Below are positions 32,770-41,774 of a DNA stretch of 64,000 bases, piece by piece. The notes beneath the pieces were generated by a model, which saw only the letters and a list, made by a program, of their open reading frames with translations, was not told the origin of the DNA and did no database searches. Every line of letters begins with the position of its first letter. Within the stretch, counting starts at the first letter, position 1. The stretch comes from a virus (taxonomy: Duplodnaviria > Caudoviricetes). Both the position numbers and the translations under genes were made by a program. The stretch lies in IMG/VR virus record IMGVR_UViG_3300029286_001711. One strand, 5' to 3'.

Positions 32770-33057
32770 TTATTGTTTTTTTAAAAAGTTAAATATTTTA
32801 AATCGATAATTAGGGATTTTAGTCATAGCAATCCATTTACCTATTACACTTCCACATATATAAACAATAATAACAGTATAGTTACCATTTAAGAGACCCT
32901 CTATAGAAAAATAGGTTGTGGATATACTAACCAAATTAATAAAAACTGTATTTAAAAGTAATGGGATAATTTTATTCTCGTAAGTATATTTAATCTCATA
33001 AGTTTTAAAAATATTAAATAAGACCTGTGAGATGAATATGAAAATATAGGTTAACAT
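32770..33057 (-). CDS. small multi-TM membrane protein (DUF2179/DUF5698-like)
   Basis: Three hydrophobic helices, YICGSVIG. Confidence 0.55.
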   Translation of the reverse strand: MLTYIFIFISQVLFNIFKTYEIKYTYENKIIPLLLNTVFINLVSISTTYFSIEGLLNGNYTVIIVYICGSVIGKWIAMTKIPNYRFKIFNFLKKQ

Positions 33058-33063
33058 AATGAA

Positions 33064-33378
33064 TTAATGTCTAGGTACAACAATCTCAACCTTCTGCTTG
33101 GGATGAATGGTATGAACATACTTAATAAGATTATCCGTTTGAACCTCAAAACTAAGTTGGGTAATCGATAACTCTTGAATGGGTTTGGCATGTTTACCAT
33201 GAGAAGGATTTAACTCAAACTCGGAGTGGTCATAGACAGCAACAGATTTATTACTATAGTAAATGGTGTCGTTCTTGGTAGACCATTTATGGTATTCTTC
33301 ACAAGTTAATTTTCCCTTGTATACTGAACAAGAGACGATGGACATAATAAGTCCAATTGATATTACTATTTTTTTCAT
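33064..33378 (-). CDS. putative lipoprotein
   Basis: Likely start 33378: MKKIVISIGLIMSIVSC (lipobox-like Cys). Confidence 0.6.
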   Translation of the reverse strand: MKKIVISIGLIMSIVSCSVYKGKLTCEEYHKWSTKNDTIYYSNKSVAVYDHSEFELNPSHGKHAKPIQELSITQLSFEVQTDNLIKYVHTIHPKQKVEIVVPRH

Positions 33379-33379
33379 A

Positions 33380-33619
33380 TTATATAAATTTAAAAACCAA
33401 TTTGGAATCACCCTGAATAATATCAGGTGCTTCACCTTGAACATAGATATCCCAAAACCCCTTGGGTAGGGTACGAATACGTGAAGTACCTATAACTTGA
33501 TAATGTACATTGATACGACCAATACCCGTAAGGTAAAATTCCTTATTGGCAAGAAGACCTATCTTATGGTTAGGGTTTTCCACCCTCTCCCTGAACTTAT
33601 ATCGTTTACCTATCTCCAT
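33380..33619 (-). CDS. small SH3-like protein
   Basis: MEIGKRYKF; ends PDIIQGDSKLVFKFI. Confidence 0.65.
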   Translation of the reverse strand: MEIGKRYKFRERVENPNHKIGLLANKEFYLTGIGRINVHYQVIGTSRIRTLPKGFWDIYVQGEAPDIIQGDSKLVFKFI

Positions 33620-33622
33620 ATC

Positions 33623-33835
33623 TTAATGTGTACCGTTAGTTAATGAAACCCCATGACGAAATCCCATAATGAAATCCCTAATTTCTTCCTCATTCATTTT
33701 GGGGAGTATGGAACCTAAAATAAATCCGACCTCATTACCGACATCCGATAAATCACCATTCTGATAGGGAACCTTGGTTAACCCAGCACCTAACTTATTT
33801 AAGACCTCTTGAAACTCTATCTCACGTTCTTGCAT
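33623..33835 (-). CDS. hypothetical protein
   Basis: 70 aa; TATCTTTG at 33935-42 upstream. Confidence 0.6.
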   Translation of the reverse strand: MQEREIEFQEVLNKLGAGLTKVPYQNGDLSDVGNEVGFILGSILPKMNEEEIRDFIMGFRHGVSLTNGTH

Positions 33836-33959
33836 ATAGAAAAGACTATACTTAGTTTTAAATTCCTTATAGGTGGAATTGGATAACTCGAATGTTTTTT
33901 AGTCCCTTACATTCTGAACCATAAACCTTATATACAAAGATACGAAAATTATTTTATTG

Positions 33960-34180
33960 AGACCACTTTTTTGGGAAAAATTTTCCCGAAATTTTTTTTG
34001 GGTTTTTGACCCTATATAGAGTAGAACGCTATTTTCAGAAATTTTTACCCCAAAATTTTTTTACACTTTTGATCTGAAAACGTATCCGAACCCCCCTATT
34101 GGGGGCTCCCCACGTCCCGGCCAGGGGGAGGGGGGATATGCGCAGGGGGGAGGGGGCCATGGTATGGGGACCCTGCCAGC
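33960..34180. other. non-coding A/T-tract block followed by a GC/G-run island (G-quadruplex potential)
   Basis: GGGAAAA-A-TTTTCCC (33973-87), long A/T tracts, CCCCCC-TATT-GGGGG (34091-105), GGGGG-A-GGGGGG-ATATGCGCA-GGGGGG-A-GGGGG (34124-56). Confidence 0.75.
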
Positions 34181-34203
34181 CTGACATCTTGTCTGTATAT
34201 TTC

Positions 34204-34395
34204 TTACGTTCGCCTCAATAGTCTACTATTAATTGGTTTGGCCGATGTCCCAGTGAACTTCGGCTTATTGTACTGCTTCATCCTCTCCATAAACTCTTTC
34301 CTCTTCCTCTCTCTGTTGTCCATCACCTTCACGATGACAGCTGATACGATTAGGATTGTACCTACTGAGATTCCTACTATAACATTCGCTTCCAT
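34204..34395 (-). CDS. small single-TM protein
   Basis: VIVGISVGTILIVSAVIV plus basic tail; promoter TTTG/20 nt/TATCTTTG at 34412-43. Confidence 0.6.
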   Translation of the reverse strand: MEANVIVGISVGTILIVSAVIVKVMDNRERKRKEFMERMKQYNKPKFTGTSAKPINSRLLRRT

Positions 34396-34484
34396 ATTAT
34401 TATCTTTAATACAAAGATAAACAATTCATTTGATATAGACAAATCTATTTGCTATGTTGTTATGTCTATCTTAGTCGTTGGAGA

Positions 34485-34754
34485 TTACATAGTCGTTGAG
34501 AATGTTAATGGTCTTAAGTGTTTGATTGGTTCTATACTTTCTTCCCGTATAGATAGTACACCTCTCTCTAGCCAACCCTCTATGTCATCATCATAAACCC
34601 AGATGGTCTTACCTGATGTCTTACCCTTAAGGAAGTACTTGTGTCTAATGAATGGTACATCACCTAGTCTATAGACTCTATCAGCCACTTTGTCTATGAC
34701 GGTCATGTAGCTATCATGTCTCATGTTATTAAACCTATCTCCTATTTGATACAT
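34485..34754 (-). CDS. small SH3-like protein
   Basis: MYQIGDRF; ends EPIKHLRPLTFSTTM. Confidence 0.65.
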   Translation of the reverse strand: MYQIGDRFNNMRHDSYMTVIDKVADRVYRLGDVPFIRHKYFLKGKTSGKTIWVYDDDIEGWLERGVLSIREESIEPIKHLRPLTFSTTM

Positions 34755-34854
34755 TCTTCTTCCTGCTCTTCTTAATCTCGTTAACTAGTATGGTGATTGA
34801 TGTGACAGCCAATCCTATACCAAAACAAAACCCCATAACATCTTTTATAATCAT
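34735..34854 (-). CDS. 39 aa single-TM peptide
   Basis: My translation MIIKDVMGFCFGIGLAVTSITILVNEIKKSRKKNVSNRR; TATCTTTA just upstream. Confidence 0.45.
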   Translation of the reverse strand: MIIKDVMGFCFGIGLAVTSITILVNEIKKSRKKNVSNRR

Positions 34855-34997
34855 ACGATAAAGATAACCATTTTATTTGGTAGTGTCAAAAGTATTATGT
34901 ACATTTGTATTGTTGATGGCCATCAGCGTGAGAGTACCAGAGTCGATTGGAGACAGCGCCAAGTGTGCCTTATATTTTCCTATTGCGGAAAATATTA

Positions 34998-35029
34998 TTT
35001 GTTTTTTAATTATATTATCCGTATCTTTG
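34998..35029 (+). promoter_or_regulatory. Bacteroidota primary-sigma-type promoter
   Basis: TTTG (34998-35001), 20 nt spacer, TATCTTTG (35022-29). Confidence 0.7.
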
Positions 35030-35127
35030 TATTATATGGGAATGACATTTAGAGTCGATGATAAACAATCGTTTTAATGTTTTTTACACTTTGTTATACA
35101 CAGTATTAATTTATAAAATATAAACAA

Positions 35128-35295
35128 ATGGAATCAGTAAAAGAATTTATCACAGAAACAAAAACAGAAATAAAAAACGGTGTTAAATACACCACACATT
35201 TTGTTAATAGACCTATTAGACAAGGCGACACACAAGGTGGTTCTGTTGGTACGTGTATTAACGGAATAAACAAAACAACGGAAATCATAAATTAA
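35128..35295 (+). CDS. 55 aa hypothetical protein
   Basis: My translation MESVKEFITETKTEIKNGVKYTTHFVNRPIRQGDTQGG...; A-rich leader, downstream of the 35022 promoter. Confidence 0.5.
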   Translation: MESVKEFITETKTEIKNGVKYTTHFVNRPIRQGDTQGGSVGTCINGINKTTEIIN

Positions 35296-35535
35296 TATTG
35301 TGTATAACTACTAGATTAACGCAATAGACATAACAAATAAAAAAAATAACAAGGTGTATCAATGCCTACATATAAAAAAGTGAAGAAGAAGTATGTCAGC
35401 GTATTTAGGTGTTGTAGTTTCATTGACTTGGCTGGTTTTAATACTTTCCTACCAACTAGAAAACGTACACTTGTTATAAAAAATTAACCCATAAAAATAG
35501 TTGATAGTATAAAATAAAATTCTTATATTTGTAGT

Positions 35536-35634
35536 ATGGAAATATTAAGTTTAGAAACAGGAGTATTAGTAATGGTGGGCGTTTGTATCACCCTATTAGT
35601 ATGGCTATTACGCAGAGTCGCTAAGATGAGTTAA
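35536..35634 (+). CDS. 32 aa single-TM peptide
   Basis: MEILSLETGVLVMVGVCITLLVWLLRRVAKMS; TTG/20 nt/TATATTTG (35501-31) directly upstream. Confidence 0.5.
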   Translation: MEILSLETGVLVMVGVCITLLVWLLRRVAKMS

Positions 35635-35932
35635 ACATGGGTTACGGTACACCCTATTTTCCCACTCTCTGTCCCTTCTCTCCAGGGAATTCCCCATTCG
35701 CTGCCGTAAAATTTGAGTCATAACTCGCAAGAGGGTCAGTTCCCTTTACGGTTTCCTTACATAATCAACCATTTCCTATTGTCTTTTCTATACGTGGCAA
35801 TCTCTTCATATACACAATCCACCACTTTTCCCCATTATTTACCACCGAGTATTCCAAGATCGAGAAATTTATACTAATTGGCAGCGGGCGTTGCCTATTG
35901 TATGGATCTACATCTTCCACACATTTACTGAA

Positions 35933-36154
35933 TTAAGATCGTAATAGAGTAGGGTTTATGGTACGTAGTAATGTCGGTTCAAAACATTCTTCCATATTTT
36001 CCTTCCATATCCAGAGTATTCTGTTCCCCCTTTCCAATATATCAACACACTCTCGTTCCCAGGCAATATATCTATATACCTCATAGACTTTTCCTATACG
36101 GAAATTCTTTGTATAATCAATCTTAGGAATCTTCTTACAAATTACTCTTTCCAT
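35933..36154 (-). CDS. small SH3-like protein
   Basis: FRIGKVYEV; ends EPTLLRTINPTLLRS. Confidence 0.55.
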   Translation of the reverse strand: MERVICKKIPKIDYTKNFRIGKVYEVYRYIAWERECVDILERGNRILWIWKENMEECFEPTLLRTINPTLLRS

Positions 36155-36528
36155 TACTTCATGTTCTTTGTTACCATCTCCAATGTATATAAGTTCTCAT
36201 TGTCCTTTTTGGTTCTGTTCTTTTTATTCTTAAGTAATTCAATCTCTTTCATTAATTCCAACTTTTGATTACTTACCTTTACTTCAGGTTTCTCAATGAA
36301 TGAATGTTCTATTGTCTTTACTGGTCTGTCTACATAGACTATCTTTTCCTTATAGACAATTTTCTCTACAGGGATTTCCTTATTTACTATCTTATCTTTG
36401 TAGACAATTTTATCCTTATAGATAATCTTATTCTTACCGATTGGTTTACTCTCTGCTGATAGAGATTTCATTACTAAGAATTGTATTACGTTGAGAACTA
36501 TTGAACCTATTATTATCATTTCTATCAT
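36154..36528 (-). CDS. membrane-anchored protein with KIVYK repeats
   Basis: N-terminal TM, then KIIYKDKIVYKDKIVNKEIPVEKIVYKEKIVY; TATCTTTG at 36533-40. Confidence 0.65.
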   Translation of the reverse strand: MIEMIIIGSIVLNVIQFLVMKSLSAESKPIGKNKIIYKDKIVYKDKIVNKEIPVEKIVYKEKIVYVDRPVKTIEHSFIEKPEVKVSNQKLELMKEIELLKNKKNRTKKDNENLYTLEMVTKNMK

Positions 36529-36546
36529 AATACAAAGATAGGGAAT

Positions 36547-36771
36547 TTATTCCTCATTTCCTATTCTATAATCTATTCTACACCAGTAGTATTTCTCCAA
36601 TGTACTAACATTAAATCCCCTTTCCAATATCATCTTACCAACCAGACTCCATCCTTGTTCTCTCTCTATATAATTTAGTATTGTATTTATAAACTCCATA
36701 GTTACATGTTCATATATTTTAGACCTTTGTTCTTTCTTACTAAAACTATGTCTCTTTAATTTGAATTCCAT
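36547..36771 (-). CDS. hypothetical protein (MEFKLKRH start)
   Basis: Likely ATG 36771 within the junction motif. Confidence 0.55.
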   Translation of the reverse strand: MEFKLKRHSFSKKEQRSKIYEHVTMEFINTILNYIEREQGWSLVGKMILERGFNVSTLEKYYWCRIDYRIGNEE

Positions 36772-36773
36772 TT

Positions 36774-36980
36774 CTAATTGTATTCTACTACACATCTTAC
36801 TTTCTCATTATAGAGTGCTGGACATTCTCCTGTATAAGTTTCTATTCTAAAATCTATTACATTATATCCTCTTACTATCATGGTCTTAATCCAATCCAAA
36901 GATTCTCTATGTGTTATATCTTCACATGTAACAGAATAAATTTTTCTTATACTATGTTTCTTCAGATTCTTTTTAATCAT
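36774..36980 (-). CDS. hypothetical protein
   Basis: 68 aa, bounded by junction motifs. Confidence 0.55.
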   Translation of the reverse strand: MIKKNLKKHSIRKIYSVTCEDITHRESLDWIKTMIVRGYNVIDFRIETYTGECPALYNEKVRCVVEYN

Positions 36981-37264
36981 TTCCTATTGTAATTTTCTAA
37001 AAACTTATTTGATGTCATATCTACGTATTCTTCCACTGTCATGAATTTGATATCTTTTATCTCTTCATTTTGTATTACCCTTTCTACTGGTTGACAACAC
37101 TCATAACAGTCTGTCTTTATTGAATAATCTACTACTGCATCATATCCACAATGATGTCCTATATCAGTTAGGAAATCTTTCTTACAGTGTGGACATTCTG
37201 TTTGTACACAAATTAATACAATACCTTTACCACGTTTTAGTGCCTCTTGTAAATTATCTTCCAT
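36977..37264 (-). CDS. Zn-ribbon-like protein
   Basis: CPHC...CYEC. Confidence 0.6.
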   Translation of the reverse strand: MEDNLQEALKRGKGIVLICVQTECPHCKKDFLTDIGHHCGYDAVVDYSIKTDCYECCQPVERVIQNEEIKDIKFMTVEEYVDMTSNKFLENYNRK

Positions 37265-37267
37265 TTC

Positions 37268-37366
37268 TTATCTTATTCTTAATCTCTTTATGTATGGTAA
37301 TGGTTCCATAACTTCTTTAACCCATTTCTTATAGAAACTTCCTTTGGTTCTACAAATATAATGAAT
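37268..37366 (-). pseudogene. start-less fragment homologous to 37822..38019
   Basis: IHYICRTKGSFYKKWVKEVMEPLPYIKRLRIR* versus FVYYCEMDGRFYDRWIKEDIKPIQYIEKFKLQ*. Confidence 0.5.
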
Positions 37367-37380
37367 TTATCTCTTATTAT

Positions 37381-37447
37381 CCATTATGTGGATAATATTT
37401 CCGATCAACGGATCCCGTCCACAATCCCCGACCCCTTTCTTTCCGAC
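37381..37447 (-). repeat. GC-rich element, copy B (inverted), containing TTATCCACA
   Basis: Minus strand AAAGGGGTCGGGG...ACGGGATCCG...GAAA...TTATCCACAT. Confidence 0.7.
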
Positions 37448-37452
37448 CGTTC

Positions 37453-37530
37453 CTATTGTAATTCTAATGGATTAATACTTAGTAGTAAGTCCATCATTTC
37501 TTCCTGTGTTAATAATATTGCTGTTCCCAT
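37453..37530 (-). CDS. 25 aa micro-ORF bounded by junction motifs
   Basis: MGTAILLTQEEMMDLLLSINPLELQ*. Confidence 0.4.
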   Translation of the reverse strand: MGTAILLTQEEMMDLLLSINPLELQ

Positions 37531-37533
37531 TTC

Positions 37534-37818
37534 TTATTCATAATGATAGTTCTTTCTTTGTGTTGTAATCAAATATTTGTCCAGGAATATTTGTTCTATT
37601 TCAGGTATTGGGTTATTATCACCTAAGAACCCATCTTTACCCCATTGTCCATTTGAGTAATAAGCCACGAGTTCTTCTTCTTCATCACCTAATAGGTACC
37701 ATTTGATTATATGGAAATCTTTATTCATTATACACTCATCTCTCACATATTCTACCCCATCATATTCCACTACATGTGTGAAATCTTCTCTATATCTTGG
37801 TTCTCTTATTATCTTCAT
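37534..37818 (-). CDS. hypothetical protein
   Basis: 94 aa, junction-bounded. Confidence 0.6.
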   Translation of the reverse strand: MKIIREPRYREDFTHVVEYDGVEYVRDECIMNKDFHIIKWYLLGDEEEELVAYYSNGQWGKDGFLGDNNPIPEIEQIFLDKYLITTQRKNYHYE

Positions 37819-37821
37819 TTC

Positions 37822-38019
37822 TTATTGTAATTTAAATTTTTCTATATATTGTATTGGTTTAATATCTTCCTTAATCCATCTGTCATAAAAACGGCCATCC
37901 ATTTCACAGTAATAAACAAATGTTTCCCATCCATAACCACAAAAGACCGTTTCCCATCCGTTCATACTTTCTACCCATTGTCTATATTTACGAAACCCCT
38001 CTCTATATCTTCCTTCCAT
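37822..38019 (-). CDS. hypothetical protein with C-terminal tag
   Basis: Ends KPIQYIEKFKLQ. Confidence 0.6.
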   Translation of the reverse strand: MEGRYREGFRKYRQWVESMNGWETVFCGYGWETFVYYCEMDGRFYDRWIKEDIKPIQYIEKFKLQ

Positions 38020-38022
38020 TTC

Positions 38023-38259
38023 TTATTGTAGTTTTACTTTTCTTAACATTCTTGGTATACAGCAGATTTCCCATTCTATAAATTCCTGATATGTTATTGG
38101 CCATATATGTTCATATTTCACATCACCTATTTCAAAATATCTTAGATAGTCTCTGAGTGAGATTAGTGTCTCTAATTGATTTATTCCCATGAACTTTGAT
38201 TCCAATGTTATATCGTATTTATTTAGTAAGAATTTCCTGTATTCCTTCTCCTTATCCAT
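38023..38259 (-). CDS. hypothetical protein with C-terminal tag
   Basis: Ends IPRMLRKVKLQ. Confidence 0.6.
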   Translation of the reverse strand: MDKEKEYRKFLLNKYDITLESKFMGINQLETLISLRDYLRYFEIGDVKYEHIWPITYQEFIEWEICCIPRMLRKVKLQ

Positions 38260-38428
38260 TTCCTTCTGATAATGTTCTTATTCTAAACAATGGTCTTGGA
38301 GTTCCATGTTGTAATCTTCTTAATCTTTTTCTTTCTTGTTGTCGCATTACCTTTTCTAACCATTCTTCCTCTTCTCTGGTTTTCTTTCTTCTGGGAATAA
38401 AGTTATGTCTCTTTAATTTGAATTCCAT
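38252..38428 (-). CDS. 58 aa basic protein (MEFKLKRH start)
   Basis: My translation MEFKLKRHNFIPRRKKTREEEEWLEKVMRQQ...; fills the gap between junction-bounded ORFs. Confidence 0.55.
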   Translation of the reverse strand: MEFKLKRHNFIPRRKKTREEEEWLEKVMRQQERKRLRRLQHGTPRPLFRIRTLSEGNG

Positions 38429-38431
38429 TTC

Positions 38432-38806
38432 TTATTGTAAGTTGTTTTTGTAAATGTAATCATATCTTACCATCAAACCAACTTCACCTGTTGGTTTCAT
38501 ATCTTTCCCTACGATACCACCGATCGGTGTTACATCATATAGATAAATCCCTTCTACACCTTTTTCCTTGTAGGTTCCTGTGCTAATCTTTTCCTTTGTT
38601 CTTACTAACCATTGATGATAGGTTTCATTTGGTTTTATCATTTCTGACCTAACACACCAGTAAGGAACTTTCTTATGTACTGCAGTTACTATTTTACCTG
38701 GGTTTTTAAAATCATCTTCAGTCTTTGTTTCAAAACTTACTAACTCCTGGTCTTCAATCTTAGTATTACTATCTTGTAGTGGTTTCCATATTTGTATTAC
38801 TTTCAT
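38432..38806 (-). CDS. hypothetical protein
   Basis: 124 aa, ends NLQ within the junction motif. Confidence 0.65.
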   Translation of the reverse strand: MKVIQIWKPLQDSNTKIEDQELVSFETKTEDDFKNPGKIVTAVHKKVPYWCVRSEMIKPNETYHQWLVRTKEKISTGTYKEKGVEGIYLYDVTPIGGIVGKDMKPTGEVGLMVRYDYIYKNNLQ

Positions 38807-38809
38807 ATC

Positions 38810-39118
38810 TTATTGTATATTTAAATTATCTTTTGTATCACCATTGAGTATTGGTATGAGTTCGTCTGGTACATAGTAGGTGTTTCCGTATTTATCCATC
38901 TTTATTGCCTTTGTTAAGAAAGGTTCTGATGTATATCTAACAACAGGGTCTTGAGTATAATAACAGAACCTATGAATCTTTTCATTATCACCGTGTTGAG
39001 CTGTGACTGTATAGTCACCATCATCCCATAAGTTTATTATAATAGTATGATGGCAGTTTGGAAACATCTCGAACATTGTTTTTCTTACGACTTCTATTTT
39101 ATCTGAAAAATTATTCAT
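38810..39118 (-). CDS. hypothetical protein
   Basis: 102 aa, ends NIQ within the junction motif. Confidence 0.65.
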   Translation of the reverse strand: MNNFSDKIEVVRKTMFEMFPNCHHTIIINLWDDGDYTVTAQHGDNEKIHRFCYYTQDPVVRYTSEPFLTKAIKMDKYGNTYYVPDELIPILNGDTKDNLNIQ

Positions 39119-39121
39119 TTC

Positions 39122-39370
39122 TTATCTTATTTCTAATTTCTTAATTTTCTTAATTGGTATTATATCACCCACTAGTCTTAAATGATGTGTATCTATAATT
39201 TCACTTATTGACCCTTCACTAATACCACAATATCTTTTTCTAGTATTTTCAGGTGTATGATAAACTTCTACGTCGTATCTTATATCATCATAGTGATAAC
39301 CAGCACTAATTATTATATTGGTAATTGTTATGCCGTAACCATCACGTCTATAGACCTCACCTATATTCAT
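39122..39370 (-). CDS. small SH3-like protein
   Basis: Likely ATG 39370 MNIGEVY; ends IPIKKIKKLEIR. Confidence 0.6.
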   Translation of the reverse strand: MNIGEVYRRDGYGITITNIIISAGYHYDDIRYDVEVYHTPENTRKRYCGISEGSISEIIDTHHLRLVGDIIPIKKIKKLEIR

Positions 39371-39701
39371 TAGAATTAAAATTGGAAATTGGGGTTTGAT
39401 TTTTATAGAATTCTTCAAACATACTTTCTATATCAAAACTATATAAAGGATTTTTTGTGTCTATCTTTTTAAGGTATTCTCCAGCACACTTATTTACATT
39501 GTGATAAACTATTCCATCCTCTTCTAGTTCATGGTCAAAACTATAAACCTCAGGTTCCATCGATTGTATTATATACCTTTCTCTATATCCAAGATTATAC
39601 ACATCTCTACCATAATGATATGCTTCCAAGACCACACAAACAATCTCTATCGAATCACTATTATATTTAACAACTTCTCCCTTATAGAACAATGGTGTCA
39701 T
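39357..39701 (-). CDS. small SH3-like protein
   Basis: LFYKGEVVKY. Confidence 0.55.
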   Translation of the reverse strand: MTPLFYKGEVVKYNSDSIEIVCVVLEAYHYGRDVYNLGYRERYIIQSMEPEVYSFDHELEEDGIVYHNVNKCAGEYLKKIDTKNPLYSFDIESMFEEFYKNQTPISNFNSNEYR

Positions 39702-39760
39702 ATCACAAATATAATCATTTCTGTGGAATTAGACAAATATATATCTGGACCGTCTTGCAT

Positions 39761-39789
39761 AAAAAACCCCCATATTTCTATGAGGGTTT
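39761..39789 (-). terminator. intrinsic terminator
   Basis: Minus strand AAACCCTCATA-GAAA-TATGGGGGTTTTTT. Confidence 0.75.
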
Positions 39790-39793
39790 ATTT

Positions 39794-40297
39794 TTATCGA
39801 CCTAAAATCTTGGTGATTTGTTTGGCCTTGTTGATGTCATCTATTCCCATTACTTTGAGAACTTGATATGCTTTGAAATCTTCATCGGAGAATTCTTCGA
39901 TTTTTTGTGTGATTAGAAATTGTTTCTTTTCTTCAAGGTCTTTAATCTCTGTCTCTAATTCCACCATTTTATCTTTCGCTCCCTTTATGTCCTCTTCGAT
40001 TGTTTCGAGGTTGATTACGTTTGGTTTCAATTCATATTCGTAGTAATTATATTGGGCCTGATATGACTGTCCATTGTATGTTATTACTGAACAAGTGTAT
40101 TGTGTCTGACCTCCACCACAACCTTTATGTTCTTTTGTAACTTTTACCACAACATCTAAACACTGACCTTGTGATACTCCAAGACCACCTGATGATTGTT
40201 TACCATTTGGTGTTGTTACTACTTTGTATGTTTTTCCTACTTCAATTTTCATTTTTTTTCTTTTAAGTTTGTTTTTAATATATTGGATTAAATTCAT
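39794..40297 (-). CDS. SH3-like plus coiled-coil protein
   Basis: KIEVGKTYKVV (alternative start 40252) followed by a heptad coil. Confidence 0.65.
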   Translation of the reverse strand: MNLIQYIKNKLKRKKMKIEVGKTYKVVTTPNGKQSSGGLGVSQGQCLDVVVKVTKEHKGCGGGQTQYTCSVITYNGQSYQAQYNYYEYELKPNVINLETIEEDIKGAKDKMVELETEIKDLEEKKQFLITQKIEEFSDEDFKAYQVLKVMGIDDINKAKQITKILGR

Positions 40298-40333: not shown

Positions 40334-40360
40334 AAAAAACCCTGATGTTATTCAGGGTTC
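40334..40360 (-). terminator. intrinsic terminator
   Basis: Minus strand AACCCTGA-ATAACA-TCAGGGTTTTTT. Confidence 0.7.
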
Positions 40361-41079
40361 ATTAAATTAATTATTTGCCATTTGCCGTCATAATCTTCGA
40401 CCAAACAGGTGCTATTCTCACAAAAGTCTCCTGAATTCATATAATCTTGTTCTAATTTTGGATAATGTATGTGACCACAAACAGCAACATCATAACCTTT
40501 TTGTTTGGTTAAATTCTTAGCATTATCTTCAAAATCTGATACAAAGTTAATTACTCCTTTGACAGATTGTTTAATTGTGTTAGCTAACGAATGATAAGGT
40601 AAATTAAATTTATTTCTTATATAGTTGTATACTGTGTTTAGTTTAATAATAAAATCATATGACCAACCGCCAAGAACTGCTAACCATCTCATTTTCATAA
40701 TTACAAAATCTAAAACATCTCCATGAAAACAATAGTAAGTTCTACCATCTACTCCTGTGTGTACATACTTTCTAACAATTTGAATATTGTTCATAGTAAA
40801 TGGAATAAATGGTTTTAAAAAATCATCGTGATTTCCCCTAATGTATATTACTTTTGTTCCTTTCTCACTTCTCTTCATAAACTTTCTAAATATTTTGGAG
40901 CAATCGTTGTTCCACCTTCCTTTTGATTTTAATGCCCAACCATCAATGATATCGCCATTTAAAATTAATATTTCGGATTTGTTTTCTTTTAAAAACTGTA
41001 ATATCTTTTCTGTTTGTGATTGTCTTGCACCAAGATGTAAATCACTCATTATAATGGTTCGCCATTTTTTCATTGCCAA
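40348..41079 (-). CDS. UDP-2,3-diacylglucosamine diphosphatase-like (LpxH-like) metallophosphoesterase
   Basis: SDLHLG, NGDIID, RGNHD, HGD, CGHIH, NSGDF. Confidence 0.85.
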   Translation of the reverse strand: MAMKKWRTIIMSDLHLGARQSQTEKILQFLKENKSEILILNGDIIDGWALKSKGRWNNDCSKIFRKFMKRSEKGTKVIYIRGNHDDFLKPFIPFTMNNIQIVRKYVHTGVDGRTYYCFHGDVLDFVIMKMRWLAVLGGWSYDFIIKLNTVYNYIRNKFNLPYHSLANTIKQSVKGVINFVSDFEDNAKNLTKQKGYDVAVCGHIHYPKLEQDYMNSGDFCENSTCLVEDYDGKWQIINLMNPE

Positions 41080-41774
41080 TATGAATTATGTTTTTGAAAA
41101 AAGTTCTTATTATTTCTGTTAATAAATGATTGAAACATTAATTTTATCATATACACTACACCCTTGTTTTTAAACCTTCTTGGGCTTGTGAATATGTGTT
41201 TGTCGATAATTTTAAATTTATTGGGTTTTACTTTTTTGGATAATAAATAATCTTCTGCGACTTTTATACTTTCATCAAAACCACCAAGTTTTTTAAATAT
41301 CTTTGTTTTAAATAACATAAAACCACCAAGACAAAATGGGGTTATTGGTTTAATTATTTTTTGTATAACATCGAATGATTTATATGTGTAATTATATTCA
41401 CCTGTTGTTGTTCTAACTTTTGTGGTTAATAAATGAAGTTTTTCTTTTTTCATTATATTAATTGTTTCTGTTAGTAAATTAAAATCTAAAATAAACATGT
41501 CTGCATCCAAAAATAAAACATAAGGAGTTGTTACATATTTAATACCATTATTTCTTGCAACTGAAGGTAGGCCACCTTGAATAATTTGTAAAATAAATTT
41601 ATCTTTTTCTCTTAATTCAAGTTCAACGGTTGTGTTATCCGTTGAAGAATCTGATACAATAACATTAACCCCCTCTATGTTATTTTGTTGGTTTAATAAA
41701 GATAATGTTGTGTCTATTATCTTAGATTCATTTTTACAAGGTATAACGATTGTTAGTAATTTTGAAAGTTCCAT
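41070..41774 (-). CDS. GT2 glycosyltransferase
   Basis: IVIPCKNE, DSSTD, ARNNG, FLDAD, AED; TATTTAT upstream. Confidence 0.88.
   Translation of the reverse strand: MELSKLLTIVIPCKNESKIIDTTLSLLNQQNNIEGVNVIVSDSSTDNTTVELELREKDKFILQIIQGGLPSVARNNGIKYVTTPYVLFLDADMFILDFNLLTETINIMKKEKLHLLTTKVRTTTGEYNYTYKSFDVIQKIIKPITPFCLGGFMLFKTKIFKKLGGFDESIKVAEDYLLSKKVKPNKFKIIDKHIFTSPRRFKNKGVVYMIKLMFQSFINRNNKNFFQKHNSYWQ

Follow-up and report, generated by a model that had tools for sequence, protein, structure and literature searches.

Why should a series of unrelated small phage genes be joined, one after another, by the same short piece of DNA? The question is raised by a micro-gene array on the minus strand of a 64-kb stretch of viral DNA (IMG/VR record IMGVR_UViG_3300029286_001711; "the window" below means this whole stretch), in which a repeated stop–start junction, here called the linker, lies between successive open reading frames (ORFs). 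The initial annotation had read these junctions as microhomologies or site-specific sites at which early genes are inserted and exchanged as cassettes, in the manner of an integron. With moderate confidence, we instead read the linker as a translational-coupling element that is copied together with genes and offers short homology for the gain and loss of cassettes, in likeness to the promoter-early stem-loops (PeSLs) of T4-type phages (Arbiol et al. 2010, PMC2839356; Comeau et al. 2014, PMC4122927).

The window has a guanine-plus-cytosine (GC) content of ~32%, and no Shine-Dalgarno (SD) sites were found before its genes. One of its proteins carries a CHU_C type IX secretion domain, its large proteins resemble those of huge uncultured phages, and near-unchanged copies of its DNA occur in contigs of up to ~201–212 kb from several lake metagenomes. 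The source is probably an uncultured giant T4-like phage, and the host probably a member of the Bacteroidota.

Linker copies in the micro-gene array

The array (35933–39701, minus strand) comprises ~15 co-directional genes of 25–124 amino acids (aa), as read from ORF lists and translations. At every junction in these lists the stop and start codons are separated by ≤3 nucleotides (nt) or overlap, and the same array genes were called on clonal contigs from several lake metagenomes. A search of the window for ACAATARGAAATG with at most two mismatches returned 27 matches, compared with 10.4 ± 3.0 in shuffled sequences, and none of 100 shuffles reached 27. More than half of these matches (15 of 27) lie on the minus strand of 35770–39128. 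The core ATA[AG]GAAATG is confined to the same interval and strand, which holds all 10 of its matches in 128 kb (both strands of the window). Nine copies join working ORFs (39116, 38804, 38426, 38017, 37816, 37528, 37262, 36978 and 36769), while four are relics or orphans without a real downstream gene (37447, 37323, 36555 and 35770). Listed in the direction of transcription, the copies and the features associated with them are as follows.

39116–39128, minus strand: linker AAGATAAGAAATG, between an 82-aa gene (39122–39370, ending ..LEIR*) and a 102-aa gene (38810–39118)
38804–38816, minus strand: linker ACAATAAGATATG, between the 102-aa gene (..NIQ*) and a 124-aa gene (38432–38806)
38426–38438, minus strand: linker ACAATAAGAAATG, between the 124-aa gene (..NLQ*) and a 58-aa, apparently chimeric gene (38252–38428)
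38017–38029, minus strand: linker ACAATAAGAAATG, between a 78-aa gene (38023–38259, ..KLQ*) and a 65-aa gene (37822–38019)
37816–37828, minus strand: linker ACAATAAGAAATG, between the 65-aa gene (..KLQ*) and a 94-aa gene (37534–37818)
37528–37540, minus strand: degenerate linker TGAATAAGAAATG, between the 94-aa gene (..HYE*) and a 25-aa ORF (37453–37530)
37447–37459, minus strand: relic linker ACAATAGGAACGG, which retains the stop of the 25-aa ORF but has lost its ATG
37323–37335, minus strand: relic linker TCTATAAGAAATG, located in the second unit's leader, with an ORF of two codons after it
37268–37309, minus strand: 13-codon mini-ORF, ending ..YIKRLRIR*
37262–37274, minus strand: linker AAGATAAGAAATG, between the mini-ORF and a 95-aa zinc-ribbon-like gene (36977–37264)
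36978–36990, minus strand: linker ACAATAGGAAATG in another frame, with the TGA of NYNRK* overlapping the ATG of a 68-aa gene (36774–36980)
36769–36781, minus strand: linker ACAATTAGAAATG, ending ..EYN*, before a 74-aa gene (36547–36771)
36555–36567, minus strand: relic linker AGAATAGGAAATG, contained in the 3′-terminal part of the 74-aa gene (..RIGNEE*)
35889–35901, minus strand: not a linker; ACAATAGGCAACG, part of the invariant hairpin core AATAGGCAACGCCCGCTGCC
35770–35782, minus strand: exact 13-mer ACAATAGGAAATG, followed by 8 codons only and no downstream gene

The initial annotation had counted 12 copies or variants. The excess over shuffled sequences confirms that the repeat is real, but the site at 35889 had to be removed from the count, as it belongs to the invariant core of a GC-rich hairpin element that four related phages share. 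The copies without a working downstream gene occupy distinct positions. The first putative transcription unit ends with the relic at 37447, behind which lie GC-rich hairpins, the gene after the relic at 36555 has its own promoter, and the copy at 35770 sits in a window-specific insertion of ~21 nt inside a conserved non-coding element. Folding of the two GC-rich stretches behind the orphan copies gave z values of −0.78 and −0.07, without significant structure.

The linker is common to the junctions as DNA and not as a peptide. It consists of an A-rich tail of the upstream gene followed by TTACAATA[A/G], GAA and ATG, and on its 3′ side it breaks off sharply at the start codon. This single DNA word is read in three frames: as ..LQ* or ..IQ* plus spacer, as ..NYNRK* with an ATGA overlap (36978), and as ..IGN.. 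(36555 and 35770). The endings LQ*, IQ*, YN* and IR* are those first described for the array, with 36978 in another frame and 36555 and 35770 in the third. By BLASTP the array proteins are unrelated, the sole exception being an N-terminal decapeptide common to two of them. In pairwise comparisons the nine junctions have a mean identity of 0.75 at positions −13 to −1, against 0.36 for control junctions from the same window. Farther upstream, at −30 to −16, it is still 0.40 versus 0.31, a value reached in none of 500 resamples, whereas at +3 to +9 it stands at background (0.39 versus 0.38). The conservation inside the upstream coding sequence, to which the initial annotation had drawn attention, is thus real and ends sharply at the ATG.

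Several simpler readings of the repeated word were considered and set aside. An LQ C-terminus acting as a protein-level signal was rejected, since the frames differ and the C-termini vary within the family. The array contains one-frame runs of four ORFs (39370 to 38252 and 38259 to 37453, minus strand) with only single TAA or TAG codons between them, probably because the spacer is 3 nt long; a read-through polyprotein was rejected, the in-frame chain being a trivial outcome of that spacer. Pairing of the linker with the 16S 3′ end, which we take to span only ~5 nt and to overlap the start codon, was also rejected. No inverted repeat or hairpin was found at or beside any linker junction, a scan for sigma-70 patterns revealed no enrichment (33 found versus 31 expected), and TAHHTTTG, the −7 element of the Bacteroidota, is absent from the linker motif.

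Two other words, both promoter-like 8-mers, precede genes throughout the window. TAHHTTTG ends 4–5 nt before eight ATGs (17779, 19144, 20443, 30477, 36528, 39701, 46614 and 57023), and ATATTTAT ends 4–7 nt before 12 ATGs, which range from 15224 to 60597. In Flavobacterium johnsoniae, a member of a phylum without SD-led initiation, TAHHTTTG is the −7 element and lies 4–5 nt from the transcription start (Baez et al. 2019, PMC6847099). Given this spacing, phage genes with these boxes are predicted to be leaderless, and a large part of the phage's mRNAs may lack a leader. In related phage loci (designated by L-numbers below), 40 of 1017 unique gene starts are preceded by TAHHTTTG, 69 by ATATTTAT, and only one by TACAAT at −11; other operons in the window use assorted stop–start junctions. 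With its core found nowhere in the window but the array, the linker is not the phage's general start signal, the alternative that had been named at the outset.

Host-type promoters occur within the array at three sites only.

39706–39713, minus strand: host-type promoter element TATATTTG, 4 nt ahead of the start codon of the first array gene (39357–39701)
37353–37360, minus strand: internal host-type promoter element TATATTTG, of TAHHTTTG type by sequence
36533–36540, minus strand: host-type promoter element TATCTTTG, 4 nt before the ATG of a 124-aa membrane protein gene (36154–36528)

The array is putatively composed of three transcription units, and with promoters at no more than these three sites the linkers would join internal cistrons.

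Gene gain and loss between related phages

The closest relatives of the array belong to a sister lineage, L100/L101, known from two independent assemblies that are 99.5% identical to each other and 86–93% identical to the window at the nucleotide level. The linker is kept at five of seven junctions in this lineage. At the place where the window has a single copy (38017), the sister has one more gene between its 78-aa and 65-aa genes. This gene encodes 88 aa, measures exactly 270 nt from one ATG to the next, and has ..AAAAATACAATAAGAAATG on one side and ..AAAATTACAATAGGAAATG on the other. The gain or loss of a cassette at the motif, which the initial annotation had proposed to look for in related phages, is therefore found, and the indel provides a clean natural case of a gene-sized event bounded by a 13–19-nt repeat. 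A related gene has decayed in the window: the 13-codon mini-ORF reads as the 3′-end remnant of a gene family that is intact in the sister (an 88-aa gene in L100, ..LEYIKKLKLQ*) and in L092 (..IEYIKRLCIK*).

Two further rearrangements separate the window from the sister. After the 124-aa gene (38432–38806), the sister has a full homologue of the window's 74-aa gene and then a 61-aa gene. Compared with L100:1515–1907, the 58-aa gene of the window (38252–38428) takes its first ~10 codons from the 74-aa-gene homologue and the rest from the 61-aa gene, with the joint at a microhomology of ~16 nt, A(A)AGACATAA(C/G)TTTAT (also written ..AAGACATAA(C/G)TTTAT..). From this alignment the 58-aa gene is evidently a deletion chimera of two sister genes, which would also account for the 40-nt repeat at 38426 and 36769, where the linker plus the next 27 nt are 93% identical. 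In the third rearrangement, upstream homology stops inside the 5′ end of the 82-aa gene.

The linker itself changes between the two lineages. Over four orthologous junctions there are five differences, about the rate of the flanks: two substitutions at 39116, where the sister has the canonical ACAATAAGAAATG; a 1-nt spacer indel at 38804, where the sister's spacer is longer; and two substitutions at 38426, including ATG to GTG. Such drift speaks against the linker being a strict protein-binding site or part of a site-specific system.

A second one-gene event is seen between two other relatives. L081 and L076 are 100% identical over 669 nt up to TTACATTAAGAAATG, after which L081 has a 111-nt one-gene insert before 99–100% identity resumes. 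Linkers that are exact or nearly so occur singly at junctions of more distant relatives, namely ACAATAAGAAATG in L092, the intergenic ATTACAATGAGAAATG in L070, and two copies with one mismatch each in L076. The family of the 124-aa gene (38432–38806) natively has TTACAAT at the 3′ end, and many of its members end in ..NSLQ*, with TTACAATGA overlapping the next start.

This family comprises 55 homologues, and that of the 94-aa gene 24 cluster representatives. The neighbours of the 124-aa gene differ in almost every relative, and gene-sized segments with 90–100% identity recur in differing contexts across these phages, so the region is hyperplastic and mosaic. The same holds for the shared genes as a whole, whose neighbours differ in nearly all relatives; a fixed gene order, which would have spoken against exchange, is not what these loci have. 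Taken together, the comparisons suggest that short-homology recombination is active in the array with linkers among the homologies used, and that use of a linker results in the clean gain or loss of one gene.

Word-index searches with the 102-aa and 65-aa genes returned their own cluster only, and homologues of both are present on the sister contigs. The array DNA was without a match in INPHARED phage records, the 167-aa neighbour gene has no relative in IMG/VR, and contigs from four public sequencing runs that contain part of the window DNA have no joints inside the array. An exact 17-mer scan of IMG/VR gave 22 matches, nearly all of them inside ORFs and in another frame (..YNKKW..), and these were discarded as chance coding matches.

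Possible functions of the linker

Translational coupling by termination–reinitiation occurs at overlapping or abutting stop and start codons and needs proximity only (Huber et al. 2019, PMC6728339). Such proximity extends over the whole co-directional array, and coupling can reasonably be inferred as a function of the linker. The other operons of the phage and its relatives differ in that they use ATGA, TAATG or assorted A-rich spacers and not the linker. Since proximity is enough, coupling alone leaves 13–16 identical bases unexplained.

We hypothesize that the extra identity is identity by descent. Judging by the geometry, the linker would set the stop codon 3 nt before the next ATG, so that ribosomes restart on internal cistrons; a restart of this kind would fit a host without SD initiation and stand-alone phage genes that are apparently leaderless. 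The linker would travel with gene ends through duplication, deletion and crossover at short homology between co-infecting relatives, with no dedicated recombinase imposing its identity. Rearrangements that end in linkers would survive because the neighbouring genes and their coupling stay intact.

The closest known counterpart is the PeSL, a composite intergenic element of tens of bases that contains a terminator stem-loop, a sigma-70-type promoter and an SD site, and for which homologous recombination between copies is the proposed mechanism (PMC2839356, PMC4122927). Like the PeSL, the linker is a short conserved repeat that ends at the downstream start codon and is clustered between small, variable ORFan genes in hyperplastic regions. 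Sister-phage indels and replacements are bounded by it (the 270-nt gene of L100/L101 versus the window, and the 111-nt insert of L081 versus L076, which starts at a copy), and degraded copies lie near rearrangements. In contrast to the PeSL, it spans only 13–30 nt and has no hairpin, host-type promoter or SD site; neither a 5′ terminator-like stem-loop nor a host-type early promoter was found inside the element. It also lies mostly within the upstream coding sequence, whose stop codon it carries, and joins the cistrons of one transcript while starting none. The linker is a variant of the PeSL theme and not an integron.

This extends the PeSL idea that repeated regulatory boundaries make the accessory genes of T4-type phages exchangeable as units. 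The boundary in this case is much smaller, promoter-less and intra-operon, and it belongs to a phage of a host phylum without SD initiation. If the linker is an efficient restart signal, it would offer a compact part for polycistronic expression in Bacteroidota, and it would help explain how phage ORFan genes are tried out with their neighbours undisturbed.

Several observations weigh against this coupling-and-homology reading. Linkers at both ends are seen for a single indel, and the L081 insert has only TTATAATATG on its right. Two of the three rearrangements between window and sister end elsewhere, one at the 16-nt microhomology inside genes and one within a gene's 5′ end. Shuffling thus does not require the linker, and gene-sized mosaicism is rampant in the phage group without it. 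From the sequences, each event in the array may be read as a gain or as a loss. The contigs of the window's own lineage are clonal (≤2 single-nucleotide polymorphisms in 9 kb) and hold no population evidence, the motif search covered 64 kb of a ~200-kb genome, and the translational restart is read from junction geometry. The cassette junction put forward in the initial annotation is supported in part: the motif is confined to the array, gene content and order vary among relatives, and the sister differs by one gene between two copies. With two of three breakpoints elsewhere, the process resembles general recombination at short homologies rather than a site-specific system.

A stronger form of the coupling proposal, which we regard as possible but rather unlikely, makes the linker a dedicated restart socket for ribosomes without SD pairing. 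A phage factor, or the 70S ribosome as it terminates, would recognise the RNA UUACAAUARGAAAUG, which would both ensure expression of any gene placed behind it and, being repeated, serve as a recombination joint. If true, it would constitute a natural plug-and-play module for expression and exchange in Bacteroidota phages.

To a comparable, low degree of belief, the linker might be a cis-regulatory signal for a trans-acting factor, with recombination between the repeats as a side effect. As such it could be a third class of promoter from which leaderless mRNAs arise (the 8-mer TTACAATA, 4 nt and ATG). It could also be a site at which the polycistronic transcript is cut into leaderless single-gene mRNAs, or the operator of a translational repressor of the RegA type. 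Both promoter classes share its geometry, an 8-mer ending 4–5 nt before the ATG (spacing rule from PMC6847099), the conservation is upstream only and stops at the ATG, and copies occur outside stop–start contexts, in the leader at 37323 and as the intergenic ATTACAATGAGAAATG of L070. However, the test that recovers both real promoter classes in relatives finds TACAAT at −11 in 1 of 1017 starts, every copy in the 64-kb window lies within one array, and conservation of the 8-mer extends undiminished over the 5 nt that precede the ATG, unlike in the other two classes. The drift between sisters, including ATG to GTG, also argues against such a signal. Among the Pfam matches listed for the 74 window ORFs (25 of 36 matched families), no RegA-like or RNase family is present. 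A T4 RegA/RegB-type regulon would call for sites spread across many early transcripts and for a regA or regB gene; in the 64 kb searched, of a ~200-kb genome, all copies sit in one array, and no such family is among these same matches.

We consider it doubtful that the array arose by tandem duplication from one ancestral gene or a few, with similarity retained at the gene ends only and the motif a remnant of paralogy that plays no part in exchange. Shared tails could be taken in this sense: the linker plus 27 nt common to 38426 and 36769 (93%), the tail ..L.IR* with AAGATAAGAAATG common to 39116 and 37262, and the tail ..IGN.. common to 36555 and 35770. Yet the deletion chimera, and not gene duplication, accounts for the first of these pairs, and the array proteins resemble one another in neither sequence nor length. 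Other phages have members of the 124-aa and 94-aa gene families without the linker, and linker copies flank a one-gene indel.

It is highly improbable that the array is a site-specific cassette system of the integron type, served by its own recombinase from a gene elsewhere in the genome: the array does consist of unrelated one-gene units with a repeated word at their boundaries, one of them present or absent exactly between two copies, but it has neither attC-like imperfect inverted repeats or hairpins at any junction (as the initial annotation had itself remarked) nor a single upstream promoter/attI architecture, some of its breakpoints lie within genes or at different microhomologies, copies of the motif differ and drift at about the flank rate, no integrase or recombinase is among the Pfam matches listed for the window, and T4-type phages achieve the same by general recombination (PMC2839356, PMC4122927).

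Elements and genes around the array

Directly 3′ of the array lies a GC-rich non-coding element of ~330 nt (35640–35975, minus strand) that is conserved in at least four related phages (L077:10895–11190, L070:9322–9620, L068:7445–7770 and L088:5095–5293). Its invariant blocks are CTAAATGTGTGGAA, AATAGGCAACGCCCGCTGCCAA, AAAGGGAACTGACC..TTCGCGAG and GTGTACCATAA. The element scored as terminator-like, and covariation is weak (3 pairs). Rfam gave no match at the gathering threshold across the whole window and none at E ≤ 1 for 33000–39800. The element could be a non-coding RNA or a bidirectional terminator region. A gene for a 32-aa hydrophobic peptide (35536–35634, plus strand) lies on the opposite strand and converges on the end of the array; it starts with its own TTATATTTG, followed by 4 nt and the ATG.

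At the other end, the ~90 nt before the first array gene (39702–39793, minus strand) contain two TATATTTG boxes. Matches at the nucleotide level in L068, L070, L077 (twice) and L093 identify this stretch as a conserved, repeated promoter region. Within the array, the 124-aa membrane protein gene (36154–36528, minus strand) contains three internal copies of a 48-nt repeat, two in tandem and one overlapping with an 18-nt offset, which encode KIVYKDKIV-type peptides. Homologues of this protein with 35–52% identity are found in L024, L037, L041, L043, L070 and L072.

A conserved intergenic word, AAACAATCGTTTTAATGTT.., is located at 35063–35081 (plus strand), upstream of a plus-strand 55-aa gene (35128–35295). 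It is repeated several times per locus in relatives (three times in L077, twice in L097, and in L086, L004 and L023), and several public contigs break at 35063–35081. The word may be the real PeSL-like promoter element of this phage group. An apparent joint from 39115 to 35066 (34 nt between, 85% likeness) was judged unreliable because its far side is this word, which is conserved in several relatives. Some relatives have a junction word of their own, (ACA)ATAGAAAGTT(A/G)TGAA(T/A)A, at several micro-gene starts (L069:6330–6545, L072:6885–6915 and L077:4140–4395); it shares ACAATAG with the window's linker, and lineage-specific linker words may be a general feature of such arrays.

Upstream of the array, a family 2 glycosyltransferase gene and a metallophosphatase gene form a pair (40348–41774, minus strand) behind a ATATTTAT motif. 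Pairs of this kind are present on 30 IMG/VR contigs, with protein identities of 76–88% for the phosphatase and 45–69% for the transferase. The flanks of these 30 relatives are unrelated and lack motif arrays, which makes them uninformative on synteny, and the pair appears from these comparisons to be a two-gene module that moves between phages.

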